Below, in pieces: positions 1 to 2,564 of a DNA stretch of 64,000 nt. How positions within the stretch are numbered: position 1 is the stretch's first letter; each line of letters begins with the position of its first letter. Both the position numbers and the translations under genes were made by a program. The notes beneath the pieces are model-generated. The model saw only the letters and a list, made by a program, of their open reading frames with translations. It was not told where the DNA came from and did no database searches. Source of the DNA: a bacterium (lineage in GTDB: Bacteria; Actinomycetota; Acidimicrobiia; Spongiisociales; ZC4RG35); the NCBI GenBank assembly GCA_028824015.1, contig JAPPFC010000055.1:40506-104505 (forward strand). The letters run 5' to 3'.

Positions 1-643
1 CATGGAGCGGAGGCCGGTGATCAGTTCTCCCACCGGAGGTTCTGCAGCCACCACCTGCGCCCTGGGGAAGGCCTCTCGCACGGCCGCTCCGGCGCCCATC
101 AGGGTGCCACCGGTCCCCAGCCCGGCGACCAGGACGTCCACCCTGTCAAGGTCGGCAACGATCTCCCGTCCGGTGCCCGCATAATGCGCTTCGACATTGG
201 CCGGATTGGCGTACTGGTGCAACATCAGGTAGTCACCGGTTGCGGCTATCCGCTCGGCCATGCGCACCGCCCCGTTCGCGCCCTCTGACTGCGGAGAGAA
301 GATGACCTCGGTTCCGAACGTCTTCATTATCTCGATCCGCTCGATGCTGGAGCCCTCAGGCATCACCACCGTGAGCGGGACGCCCCACAGCATGGCCAGC
401 CGGGCCATGGCGATTCCCGTGTTCCCCGACGATGGTTCCAGGAGCCTTGTGCCAGGCAAAAACCGGCCCTCGGCCCGAGCCTTCTCCATCATTGCCACCG
501 CCACGCGGTCCTTCAGGGAACCGGTGGGCAGGAACCACTCCAGCTTGGCGTAGACGTCAACCCCCGGAGGGGAAAGCGCCTCCAATCGGACTAAGGGAGT
601 AGGAGCAAGAACCGTTGACGCCTGGGAGGGCATCAACCACCTG
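1..643 (-). CDS. cysM: Cysteine synthase (CysM-type, O-phosphoserine sulfhydrylase-like), truncated at the left edge of the window
   Basis: Manual reverse-strand translation from the ATG at 643 gives MPSQASTVLAPTPLVRLEALSPPGVDVYAKLEWFLPTG, the N-terminal PLP-enzyme signature (KLE..NPtGSxKDR) of cysteine synthases. The start overlaps the cysO stop by 11 nt. It is absent from the ORF track because it runs off the window. Confidence 0.75.
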
Positions 644-908
644 CGACCGACGGAAGTACAGTGATCTCCGACGGTTGCGTAATAGGAGTGTCCAAACCCT
701 TGAGATAACGGATGTCCTCGTCGTTGAGGAAGACATTGACGAACACCGGCACCGAGCCGTCCGGATCGAGGAGTTGGGACGCCAGAGCCGGATACCGCCT
801 GCCCATATCGGAGAACGCCTCTCCCACGGTGGATCCACAGGCGGTCACCGAAGAGTCCCCTCCGGCGTGAACCCGAAGAATCGTGGGCAGGCGAATGGTA
901 TGCATCAT
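633..908 (-). CDS. cysO: Sulfur carrier protein CysO (ThiS/MoaD ubiquitin-like fold) ending in Gly-Gly
   Basis: 91-aa ORF ...VNVFLNDEDIRYLKGLDTPI...TVLPSVAGG with a terminal GG, characteristic of MoaD/ThiS/CysO carriers. It lies between mec and cysM as in the Mycobacterium Rv1334-1336 arrangement. Confidence 0.8.
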   Translation of the reverse strand: MMHTIRLPTILRVHAGGDSSVTACGSTVGEAFSDMGRRYPALASQLLDPDGSVPVFVNVFLNDEDIRYLKGLDTPITQPSEITVLPSVAGG

Positions 909-921
909 TGTGAGATTCCTC

Positions 922-1350
922 CTAGGAGTGGGCTTCGAAGCTCAATGTCTTCTCGGTGATCCGGCAGTCGCGGATGCGAAATCCCCGCACGGATAGGGTA
1001 TCGATCCGTTCCATGCCCACCAGCACATAGAGCCAATCCGGCTCCACGGCCAACGCCACATCGGTGGAAGACGGGTAAGCGGGGGAATGGGTGTGGGAAT
1101 GGAATACTCCAACCAACTCCCAGCCCTTCGATTCCGCATCCCGCAGCGCCCCGAAGTGCTCGCTCGGGTCGATCACATAATTGACCGCCGAGTGGGCGAT
1201 GTTGGTCAGGGGATAGGCCTTGGTCAGGCGACCATCCGGGTATCCCGCCAACAACCCGCATGCCTCCTCTGGATAGCAGTCCCGGGCGTGCTCGACCATC
1301 GTCCTGTGGACTGGTTCGGGAACGCGGATAGATGATTGTTCGTCACACAT
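922..1350 (-). CDS. mec: Mec+ JAMM/MPN metalloprotease (CysO-cysteine peptidase)
   Basis: Carries EEACGLL and the JAMM motif HSHTHSPAYPSSTD (HxHx7Sx2D). About 142 aa from MCDEQ. An alternative start, MVEHARD at 1299, is possible. Confidence 0.8.
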   Translation of the reverse strand: MCDEQSSIRVPEPVHRTMVEHARDCYPEEACGLLAGYPDGRLTKAYPLTNIAHSAVNYVIDPSEHFGALRDAESKGWELVGVFHSHTHSPAYPSSTDVALAVEPDWLYVLVGMERIDTLSVRGFRIRDCRITEKTLSFEAHS

Positions 1351-1385
1351 GAGAGGTTTCCCCGCCAGGGGAGAAGCCGAGTCGG

Positions 1386-2564
1386 TCAGACGGTCCTGGC
1401 AACCGACCCGGCGGGCATACAGTACTGGTCGTATTCCACGATGGCGGGCGGCCGACTCTCGTCGGCGCACGCCAGGCAGTCGGGGTTGCGGCGCAGATTC
1501 AAGATCCGGAAGTCCTCGGTCAGGGCATCGTAGGTGAGGAGCTTTCCGACCAGCGGGTCTCCTATCCCGAGAAGCAACTTGATGGCTTCCATGGCCTCGA
1601 TGGAACCGATGATTCCCGGCAGCACGCCCAGCACACCCGCCTCCGCGCAGGAAGGAGCAAGCTCCGGAGGAGGAGGCTGAGGGAAGAGGCACCGGTAGCA
1701 GGGGCCCTGGTAGGGATGGAACACGCTGGCCTGGCCCTCGAAGCGGAAGATGGCGCCGTGCACCACCGGGATCCGGAGGTGTAGGGAAGCATCATTCACC
1801 AGGTAGCGGGTTGGGAAGTTGTCTCCCCCGTCGACCACCAGGTCGTACCCCGACATCACCTCCAGCACATTGGCGGCTGACAGCCGCTCCCCGTAGGGCT
1901 CCACCTTGACATCCGGATTGAGGGCGGTGAGGGTCTCCCGAGCCGACTCCGCCTTGGAATGCCCAAGCCGATCCATGTTGTGAAGAATCTGTCGCTGGAG
2001 GTTGGAGGCGTCCACCACATCGAAGTCAACCACGCCCAGCACTCCCACACCCGCGGCCGCGAGGTAGAGGGCGGCGGGAGAACCCAGTCCCCCGGCTCCC
2101 ACCAGCAACACCCGAGAGTTCAAAAGCTTGGCCTGGCCCTCTTCTCCGACTTCGGGCAACATGGTGTGCCGGCTGTAGCGCACCTTCTGATCGGAGGAGA
2201 GCGTGACCGGCTCGGACCAGGGACGCCCCTCCGCCTTCCACTGGCCGAACCCTCCGGACATGGACACCACGTTCTCGTAACCCAGCTCCTGCAGCGATAG
2301 GGCGGCCAGAGCGGACCGGGCCCCTCCCGCGCAGTAGACCACGATCTCCTTGTCGGGATCGGGCACCTGCATGGAGATGGAGGTCTCCAAAAGCCCCCTG
2401 GGAATGAGGTGAGCGCCAGGGATAGCGCCCTGCTCGTATTCCTCGTGTTCCCGCACATCCAGCCAGAGCAGGTCTTCGTCTCCCAGCCGGGGCTCGACCT
2501 CCGCAGGAGTGACTTCCCTTATCTGGGCTTTGACTTTCCTTAGTAAGTCCTGAAAGGTAACCAT
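1386..2564 (-). CDS. Sulfur-carrier E1-like adenylyltransferase (ThiF/MoeB/MoeZ family) with an N-terminal rhodanese domain
   Basis: The N-terminal ~110 aa form a rhodanese domain with the active-site loop VVYCAGGARS. This is followed by a ThiF fold (LLVGAGGLGSPAALYLAAAGVG, DxDxVxxSNLQRQ) and two CxxC pairs (CYRC...CLAC). The gene lies directly upstream of mec-cysO-cysM. Confidence 0.8.
   Translation of the reverse strand: MVTFQDLLRKVKAQIREVTPAEVEPRLGDEDLLWLDVREHEEYEQGAIPGAHLIPRGLLETSISMQVPDPDKEIVVYCAGGARSALAALSLQELGYENVVSMSGGFGQWKAEGRPWSEPVTLSSDQKVRYSRHTMLPEVGEEGQAKLLNSRVLLVGAGGLGSPAALYLAAAGVGVLGVVDFDVVDASNLQRQILHNMDRLGHSKAESARETLTALNPDVKVEPYGERLSAANVLEVMSGYDLVVDGGDNFPTRYLVNDASLHLRIPVVHGAIFRFEGQASVFHPYQGPCYRCLFPQPPPPELAPSCAEAGVLGVLPGIIGSIEAMEAIKLLLGIGDPLVGKLLTYDALTEDFRILNLRRNPDCLACADESRPPAIVEYDQYCMPAGSVARTV

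Follow-up and report, generated by a model that had tools for sequence, protein, structure and literature searches.

Organization of the cluster

The start of the window, by which we mean the whole 64,000-nt stretch of DNA analysed here, carries four genes on its minus strand, encoding an activating enzyme (E1), a Mec-type peptidase, a CysO-type sulfur carrier and a CysM-type cysteine synthase (Table 1); all four members of the original prediction were thus found, on one strand as stated there. The overlapping stops and starts that had been described for them are present at one junction, where the cysO stop and the cysM start have one nucleotide in common (TGATG); this is the sole overlap in the cluster, as E1 and Mec are separated by 35 nt and Mec and CysO by 13 nt, the shorter gap containing an AGGAGG site. 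The window holds the first 211 of the 308 residues of CysM; the complete gene is present in L001 (L001:11932-12858), in which Mec is also called as a 142-aa gene.

Table 1. Coordinates of the cluster features and of moaE within the window
Feature	Position	Strand	Description
E1	2564..1386	(-)	392 aa; rhodanese then ThiF; NCBIfam NF006444, named 'MoeB'
E1 rhodanese domain	2229..2510	(-)	residues 19-112; Pfam PF00581, E 2.6e-21
E1 ThiF/MoeB adenylation domain	1473..2177	(-)	residues 130-364; Pfam PF00899, E 2.6e-83
Mec-type JAMM/MPN+ zinc peptidase	1350..922	(-)	142 aa; Pfam Prok-JAB
CysO-type ThiS/MoaD-fold sulfur carrier	908..633	(-)	91 aa; Pfam ThiS
CysM-type PLP cysteine synthase	633..1	(-)	Pfam PALP; gene cut by window edge
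AT-rich spacer, folD stop to E1 start	2565..2611	(-)	47 nt; possible promoter region
moaE, molybdopterin synthase large subunit	58735..59169	(-)	PF02391; solitary

Upstream, purH and folD lie on the same strand and form a run with the cluster across the AT-rich spacer, and recQ flanks the other side. Promoter and terminator scans of positions 1-5300, including the spacer, gave results at chance level, and Rfam and tRNA scans of the 64-kb window returned no matches. No sulfur donor to the E1 rhodanese domain is encoded in the cluster, which makes the earlier description of it as self-contained an overstatement.

Domain order and family of the E1

Pfam domain analysis placed the rhodanese domain of the E1 ahead of its ThiF domain (Table 1), the inverse of the order in MoeZ/MoeZR, MOCS3 and Uba4, where ThiF is followed by a C-terminal rhodanese domain. 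In genuine MoeZ proteins of Nonomuraea and Ralstonia, for example, ThiF leads and a CKSGARS loop comes last. The inverted order had been predicted, as had the CAGGARS loop and the two CxxC pairs of the ThiF domain, and a motif scan located the rhodanese active-site loop at C78-AGGARS; the ThiF motifs comprise GAGGLG at 156, D248 and the CxxC zinc pairs C289-YRC and C363-LAC, together with a loop cysteine, Cys306, in an SCAEAG loop. A comparison of 10 E1 homologues showed C78, R83, G156-G161, D180, D248, C289, C292, C306, C363 and C366 to be invariant. Apart from the domain order, the E1 resembles MoeZ/MoeZR, MOCS3 and Uba4 in its GxGxxG motif, adenylation Asp, two CxxC pairs, loop Cys and CxxGxRS rhodanese Cys. 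Residues 3-120 matched the PDB sequences 6MXV, 1YT8, 2HHG and 1QXN, and the ThiF domain matched E. coli MoeB (1JW9; E 4e-61); jointly, the Pfam and PDB sequence matches settle the predicted fold of both domains.

Next, the protein was compared with curated family models. It scored 567.8 bits against NF006444 (cut-off 449) in a collinear, full-length alignment (E1 residues 4-384 on profile positions 3-385 of 387), and 394.5 against the MoeZ model NF005902 (cut-off 647), which it matched in two separate stretches. The ThiF domain shares 55.6-57.7% identity with two MoeZ proteins and 46.7% with E. coli MoeB, and a crude neighbour-joining tree that contains two C-rhodanese sequences only and carries no support values set the N-rhodanese E1s apart from MoeZ. 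The architecture of NF006444 (PRK08762, 'molybdopterin-synthase adenylyltransferase MoeB') does not differ from that found here, although the family name implies a role in molybdenum cofactor (Moco) synthesis while the context at this locus is cysteine synthesis. The N-rhodanese plus ThiF architecture recurs in many phyla at 48-69% identity, including Acidimicrobiia, Gaiellales, Chloroflexota, Myxococcota, Binatia, Nitrospinota and proteobacterial plasmids. Judged by its sequence, the E1 is a member of a curated and widespread N-rhodanese/ThiF family, so that the arrangement is real but, against the earlier expectation, not new. A literature search for N-terminal-rhodanese ThiF/MoeB proteins or PRK08762 yielded nothing relevant and no biochemistry for any family member.

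Peptidase, carrier and synthase

The Mec protein matched Prok-JAB (PF14464, E 8.8e-24) and has an intact JAMM motif (E28 ... H84-S-H-THSPAYP-S-ST-D, residues 28 and 84-97; consensus E...HxHx7Sx2D). CysO matched ThiS (PF02597, E 6.4e-10) and ends in SVAGG directly before the stop codon; its best PDB match was M. tuberculosis CysO (3DWG_C, E 5e-22), in an alignment reaching the C-terminal GG, and it also matched a ThiS/MoaD family protein (4N6E_B, E 2.6e-18), which we take to be CysO complexed with a thiosugar synthase. The score of CysO against the archaeal MoaD model TIGR01687 was 30.7, below the cut-off of 49.5. CysM matched PALP (E 5.2e-55), and the full-length protein had its best match in M. 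tuberculosis CysM (3DWG_A/3DKI, 9.5e-72), followed by a cysteine synthase (2e-59). It keeps the PLP lysine (SLKDR), the equivalent of Arg220 (LRSME) and the C-terminal ...LW tail of the M. tuberculosis enzyme, and is predicted to be of the O-phosphoserine sulfhydrylase type, closest to Rv1336. The full-length protein scored 287.5 against the NCBIfam cysKM model (cut-off 344) and also fell under the cysM and cysK cut-offs, so the CysM assignment is based on the PDB match and the context.

Domain, NCBIfam and PDB matches agree with the proposed thiocarboxylate route of CysO, CysM and Mec with an E1 alongside. We regard it as very probable that this locus of an Acidimicrobiia metagenome-assembled genome is a CysO/CysM/Mec-type cluster for protein-thiocarboxylate cysteine synthesis, with its E1 encoded immediately upstream.

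Distribution of the E1 and of the cluster

The gene order E1-Mec-CysO-CysM is conserved in the relatives L002 and L003 (91% identity) and, with insertions, in L097 and L098 (75-79% identity). At 21 of the 80 more distant N-rhodanese E1 loci, the E1 adjoins CysO, CysM and usually Mec, the order in the Gaiellales and Chloroflexota loci being E1-CysO-CysM-Mec. No purH/folD/recQ synteny was found around these 80 loci, indicating that the flanking context is lineage-specific, and some relatives' clusters adjoin transsulfuration-type genes (PALP, Cys_Met_Meta_PP). In-frame cysO-cysM fusions occur in L047 (415 aa, its domains confirmed with NCBIfam) and L073 (405 aa). Combined with the nucleotide shared by cysO and cysM here, these fusions provide strong evidence that the carrier and the synthase act together.

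The E1 itself belongs to a cysteine synthesis cluster both at this locus and in a closely related clade, and stands alone in most of the other relatives sampled, the sampled N-rhodanese E1 genes being mostly solitary. Pairs of E1 and JAB genes without CysO or CysM are found in L018, L020, L021 and L099; one 3.48-Mb Acidimicrobiia contig has such an E1-JAB pair, with CysO and CysM absent at the locus. Proteobacterial homologues of the E1, in turn, adjoin other MoaD/ThiS genes within YcaO/TfuA clusters. Because most sampled N-rhodanese E1s are solitary, E1-JAB pairs occur without CysO and CysM, and homologues reside in YcaO/TfuA clusters, the E1 is probably a general sulfur-carrier activating enzyme of the cell and not one dedicated to CysO. 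NCBI names the Acidimicrobiia homologues MoeB, as it does the plasmid homologues in Rhizobium, Sinorhizobium, Mycetohabitans and Piscinibacter; the E1 here and thousands of Acidimicrobiia sequences are in this way labelled as a Moco enzyme. Since the protein is probably a general activase, 'sulfur-carrier protein adenylyltransferase/sulfurtransferase' is the safer name.

Proposed pathway and alternative roles

What the sequences show directly is which genes are present and in what order, how the domains are arranged, which motifs they carry, and their closest relatives and distribution; every chemical step we infer by analogy with the M. tuberculosis system, following the chemistry of the CysO pathway as laid out previously (PMC3227635). 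The ThiF domain of the E1 would use ATP to adenylate the C-terminal Gly91 of CysO, and the resulting acyl-adenylate would be attacked either by free sulfide or by the N-terminal rhodanese domain, through a persulfide carried on its Cys78. Resolution of the product, possibly via the loop cysteine Cys306, would give the thiocarboxylate CysO-COSH. CysM would form a PLP-aminoacrylate, to which CysO-COSH would then be added; given the conserved equivalent of Arg220, O-phosphoserine is the probable source of the aminoacrylate. [quoted passage not shown] How an N-terminal rhodanese domain gets to the site of adenylation is a point on which structural work would be of modest use.

The same proteins could in principle serve mainly SAMP/TtuB-type conjugation, with the E1 activating CysO for attachment to lysines, Mec acting as the deconjugase and CysM merely adjacent. 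CysO, Mec and the ThiF domain do have SAMP1 (50.3 bits), desampylase (79.7) and UbaA (329.8) among their best NCBIfam matches, and the four relatives with E1-JAB but neither CysO nor CysM fit such a role; all three scores, however, lie under the curated cut-offs (60, 130 and 450, respectively), so that similarity to the Haloferax SAMP1/UbaA/HvJAMM1 proteins is sub-threshold throughout, and Haloferax UbaA has no rhodanese domain, unlike the E1 here. SAMP1 is both a MoaD-like carrier and a protein modifier and is thus a precedent for a dual-use carrier, but we know of no CysM partner in the Haloferax system. The translational coupling of cysO to cysM at this locus, their fusion in relatives and the fact that CysO and CysM are both closest to the M. 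tuberculosis CysM-CysO complex in the PDB argue against conjugation as the main function, which we consider quite unlikely; a side role of CysO and Mec in conjugation may exist.

Alternatively, the CysM-like enzyme might use CysO-COSH for a product thiol that is not cysteine, such as a precursor of a specialised metabolite, as is seen where natural-product pathways have recruited sulfur carriers. Consistent with this are the scores of CysM under the three NCBIfam cut-offs, the match of CysO to 4N6E_B and the proteobacterial plasmids in which pairs of an N-rhodanese E1 and a carrier serve YcaO/TfuA clusters. There are, however, no biosynthetic genes beside the cluster, whose neighbours are purH, folD and recQ; the PLP lysine, the Arg220 equivalent and the ...LW tail agree with M. 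tuberculosis CysM; and it is the PALP and Cys_Met_Meta_PP genes that stand beside the cluster in relatives. A non-cysteine product is highly unlikely on this evidence, and cysteine is the favoured product of the pathway set out above.

The solitary moaE gene

The original prediction pointed to a lone moaE without a moaD partner, and such a gene is present (Table 1), with Zincin_2 and AMP-binding/ABC transporter genes as its neighbours. Its arrangement is kept across Acidimicrobiia relatives down to 66% identity, and a MoaE homologue search over the same range found no ThiS-family gene in the moaE neighbourhoods of relatives. Some actinobacterial genomes also encode moaE and moaD at unlinked positions. 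A second ThiS/MoaD-like ORF was found neither among the ORFs ending in GG nor with a CysO-family HMM run on all stop-to-stop ORFs of the 64 kb, but the window is a small part of a genome of likely ~2.6-2.8 Mb and the absence of moaD from it says little.

These observations allow for a further role of the carrier, in which CysO-COSH formed by the same E1 would also pair with MoaE in molybdopterin synthase, taking the place of the small subunit and making a separate moaD unnecessary. The conserved solitary moaE and the single ThiS-family ORF of the window are compatible with this, as are the sub-threshold matches of CysO to the archaeal MoaD and SAMP1 models; moaE, however, lies ~56 kb from the cluster in an unrelated gene context. 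Moreover, in the sole published test, nitrate reductase activity of E. coli moeB- cells, which depends on Moco, was restored with MoaD1 and MoaD2 but not with MoeZR and CysO (PMC3227635, Table 1). As MoeZR activates MoaD1, MoaD2 and CysO (PMC3227635), a shared E1 has published precedent; a shared carrier has none, and we consider its use by MoaE quite unlikely. If it were true, one E1 and one carrier would feed both CysM and MoaE, paralleling in a bacterium the dual use of SAMP1 in archaea.

Comparison with known sulfur-carrier systems

Like the M. tuberculosis mec-cysO-cysM genes (Rv1334-Rv1336), the cluster combines a GG-ending ThiS-fold carrier, a predicted O-phosphoserine-type CysM and a JAMM peptidase, and its E1 joins adenylation and rhodanese domains as MoeZR (Rv3206c) does; MoeZR, however, is encoded elsewhere in the genome, whereas the E1 adjoins the cluster here. 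A cluster that includes the E1 had by implication been presented as novel, but the same four components (ThiS/MoaD, rhodanese-fused E1, JAB and cysteine synthase) were already tabulated in 2006 as one predicted operon, the type 4c neighbourhood, from Rubrobacter, Chloroflexus, Salinibacter, Solibacter, P. aeruginosa and R. palustris (Iyer, Burroughs, Aravind; PMC1779556, Table 1, row 4c). In its text, that paper describes carboxyl-terminal rhodanese fusions only, unlike the N-terminal rhodanese domain found here (PMC1779556). In the actinobacterial '4d' neighbourhood there are a ClpS gene and a gene for a helical protein, neither of which was seen at this locus. An E1, a JAB protein and a carrier also occur together in the core of the Pseudomonas/Ralstonia PDTC and quinolobactin systems (PdtF/QbsC, PdtG/QbsD and PdtH/QbsE, respectively), and the Ralstonia locus L101 has MoeZ, peptidase, MoaD/ThiS and CaiB-like genes in a row; in contrast to the present cluster, those systems have a C-terminal rhodanese domain, a siderophore-precursor acceptor and no CysM. 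The locus is thus an unremarkable example of a cluster type that had been catalogued before, and its significance beyond annotation is small.

The retention of Mec beside a carrier that ends in GG and needs no trimming had been singled out as an oddity. The M. tuberculosis carrier has the same GG end (its alignment runs through the last residue, 93 of 93), so that Mec with an untrimmed carrier is the standard case. The survey of relatives also revealed CysO-E1 fusions as well as CysO tails running past the GG, and fusions and tails of this kind would explain why Mec accompanies the system.

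Organization and domain content of the cysteine cluster

The genes for the activating enzyme E1, the JAMM peptidase Mec, the ThiS-fold carrier CysO and the PLP-dependent cysteine synthase CysM lie on one strand, as originally predicted, and assembly GCA_028820285.1, with an identical E1 protein and the same gene calls, supplied the complete CysM of 308 aa. The predicted overlap of stops and starts held only for cysO and cysM (1 nt, TGATG), while gaps of 35 nt and 13 nt separate E1 from Mec and Mec from CysO, the latter gap containing an AGGAGG site. Upstream, the same-strand run continues through folD to purH. 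The folD-E1 spacer stands out from the 64% GC genome by its marked AT-richness, and a 5-bp hairpin (AAGAG-ATA-CTCTT) occurs within it. It may harbour a promoter or a regulatory element of the cluster; consensus promoter and terminator scans of the cluster region, spacer included, remained at chance level and, given also the purH-folD run, a transcription unit of these four genes is at most putative. The description 'self-contained' was too strong, as neither a sulfur donor for the rhodanese domain nor a supply of O-phosphoserine is encoded in the cluster.

Coordinates of the features in the window and at the loci of relatives
Feature	Position	Strand	Description
E1	2564..1386	minus	392 aa
Mec	1350..922	minus	142 aa
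CysO	908..633	minus	91 aa; C-terminus ...SVAGG-stop
CysM	start 633, cut at window edge	minus	first 211 codons
folD-E1 spacer	2565-2611		47 nt
Gene with SpoIID domain	36173-39496	minus	~1100 aa
LipB-LipA-like ORF	39569-41305	minus	578 aa
moaE	58735-59169	minus	genuine, solitary; Pfam match
E1-JAB-ROK	L099:5001-7690		3.48-Mb Acidimicrobiia contig
E1 with MoaD/ThiS gene	L007:1-11119		Mycetohabitans rhizoxinica plasmid
E1 with MoaD/ThiS gene	L008:1-11188		Rhizobium leguminosarum plasmid
CysO-CysM fusion	L047:5486-6733		415 aa; Gaiellales-type relative
CysO-CysM fusion	L073:~7182-8396		405 aa; Gaiellales-type relative
CysO-rhodanese-ThiF fusion	L070:2705-4162		485 aa; uncultured bacterium

Pfam matches far above threshold placed a rhodanese (residues 19-112) ahead of ThiF (130-364) in E1, in agreement with the predicted order, and identified Mec, CysO and CysM as Prok-JAB, ThiS and PALP proteins, respectively. 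The motifs first noticed in E1 were located (C78-AGGARS, C289-YRC and C363-LAC), together with GAGGLG, D248 and loop Cys306; the JAMM motif of Mec (E28...H84-S-H-x7-S-x2-D) and the PLP lysine of CysM are also present. Solved rhodaneses aligned with the N-terminal domain of E1, and E. coli MoeB (1JW9, 4e-61) with its ThiF domain. Full-length CysM best matched M. tuberculosis CysM (3DWG/3DKI, 9.5e-72; next cysteine synthase 2e-59), with which it shares the PLP lysine, the Arg220 equivalent and a similar ...LW C-terminus. The best match of CysO was M. tuberculosis CysO (3DWG_C, 5e-22), aligned to the last residue in both, so that the latter likewise ends in GG. The predicted CysO-dependent cysteine route is well supported by this homology and by context. 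Mec beside an untrimmed GG carrier, previously regarded as an oddity, is exactly the situation in M. tuberculosis, where Mec hydrolyses the CysO-cysteine adduct (PMC3227635).

In the most likely mechanism, the ThiF domain would adenylate CysO-Gly91, and the adenylate would be converted to CysO-COSH by a Cys78 persulfide or free sulfide, possibly through Cys306; a CysM-PLP aminoacrylate, probably derived from O-phosphoserine, would accept the thiocarboxylate, and after an acyl shift cysteine would be released by Mec. As known structures of MoeB have the ThiF fold starting near the active sites of the dimer, the short linker (residues 113-129) could place the rhodanese close to the adenylate.

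Distribution of the N-rhodanese E1

The 'inverted' E1 is, by sequence comparison, a member of a family already known and widespread. NCBIfam NF006444 (PRK08762, 'MoeB') matched residues 4-384 over profile positions 3-385 of 387 (567.8 bits; cut-off 449), while the MoeZ model scored only 394.5, below the required 647. At least 8000 proteins matched E1 at E <= 1e-20; both domains were present in all of the best 120 of 8000 (71-94% identity; 374-426 aa, most 389-396), several of which are named MoeB (NCBI) or 'sulfur-carrier protein adenylyltransferase/sulfurtransferase' (JGI). Collinear full-length homologues (48-54% identity) were detected by tblastn on plasmids of Mycetohabitans, Piscinibacter, Rhizobium, Sinorhizobium and Paraburkholderia, and a scan of species-representative genomes listed 80 collinear homologues, nearly all near full length (52-69% identity), with titles including Acidimicrobiia, Gaiellales, Solirubrobacteraceae, Ktedonobacteraceae, Limnocylindrales, Thermomicrobium, several Myxococcota, Binatia, Nitrospinota, Thermodesulfobacteriota, Entotheonella and cultured Salinilacustrithrix flava. 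A crude neighbour-joining tree of ThiF domains, rooted on E. coli MoeB, set all N-rhodanese proteins apart from the C-rhodanese MoeZ of Nonomuraea and Ralstonia (55.6% and 57.7% identity to the window domain; E. coli MoeB, 46.7%); with just these two MoeZ sequences and no support values, it is no more than suggestive of a single origin of the arrangement.

Relatives at 91% E1 identity retain E1-Mec-CysO-CysM in this order, as do, with a DUF4395 gene inserted, those at 75-79% (L097, L098); a further locus (L099) keeps E1-JAB-ROK, with CysO and CysM absent there. The DUF4395 gene lies between E1 and JAB, one joint DUF4395-JAB product being called in L098, and all three loci have, just upstream, genes for a CBS-like PALP protein and a Cys_Met_Meta_PP protein. 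CysO and CysM adjoin E1 in 21 of the 80 distant loci, mostly with Mec and mostly as E1-CysO-CysM-Mec; E1-Mec alone occurs in three, and in the remainder E1 stands by itself amid unrelated genes. On two plasmids (L007, L008), E1 and a MoaD/ThiS gene are accompanied by YcaO, TfuA, SAM-methyltransferase and LanM genes, and in L007 by a Nif11-type RiPP precursor gene, which suggests a carrier-thiocarboxylate as the sulfur source for peptide thioamidation. These varied contexts indicate that the rhodanese-ThiF architecture serves several sulfur-carrier pathways, and E1 probably works as a general activase whose place beside the cysteine genes in this lineage is incidental. Row 4c in Table 1 of Iyer, Burroughs and Aravind (2006; PMC1779556) gives a neighbourhood of ThiS/MoaD, rhodanese-fused E1, JAB and cysteine synthase genes for Rubrobacter, Chloroflexus, Salinibacter, Solibacter, P. 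aeruginosa and R. palustris; the passages of its text on rhodanese fusions describe carboxyl-terminal ones only. Each supposedly unusual feature (E1 in the operon, N-terminal rhodanese, Mec despite GG) is already catalogued or standard.

In-frame CysO-CysM fusions in two relatives support the carrier-synthase link, and CysO is fused to rhodanese-ThiF in one bacterium (domains confirmed by NCBIfam in L047 and L070). Most Gaiellales and Chloroflexota CysO homologues extend 1-14 residues beyond GG. Such fused or tailed forms need cleavage, presumably by the adjacent JAMM peptidase, to expose GG, which accounts for the co-occurrence of Mec with the other components; the window CysO, like that of M. 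tuberculosis, has the bare GG of the already-processed form.

MoaE and possible carrier sharing

Of the readings considered, just one would be truly new: CysO as a single carrier for both cysteine and, with MoaE, molybdopterin. MoaE indeed has no moaD partner in the window, where CysO is the single ThiS-family ORF and the Pfam-annotated gene lists contain no other Moco gene, an absence that says little given the small fraction of the genome covered. Its neighbours are a gene for a Zincin_2 metalloprotease on one side and, on the other, a block of branched-chain ABC transporter and AMP-binding ligase genes, a layout that persists throughout Acidimicrobiia at MoaE identities as low as 66% (L010-L016); over this range no ThiS-family neighbour was found at the relatives' loci examined, nor any MoaE-MoaD fusion among the 120 MoaE matches listed. 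Sharing of an E1 has direct precedent in M. tuberculosis MoeZR, which thiocarboxylates MoaD1, MoaD2 and CysO. A shared carrier lacks such precedent: in complementation of E. coli moeB-, MoeZR with CysO yielded 0.010 U, compared with 0.039-0.042 U with MoaD1 or MoaD2 (PMC3227635, Table 1), and carrier sharing is an unlikely reading.

Elsewhere in the window, an ORF combining LplA-B_cat (octanoyl/lipoyl transferase) with LIAS_N and Radical_SAM (lipoyl synthase) looks like a LipB-LipA fusion and adjoins 2-oxoacid dehydrogenase E2 and E3 genes. Between it and a transketolase gene lies the gene for a predicted large cell-wall-associated protein with three PG_binding_1 repeats, SpoIID and fn3.
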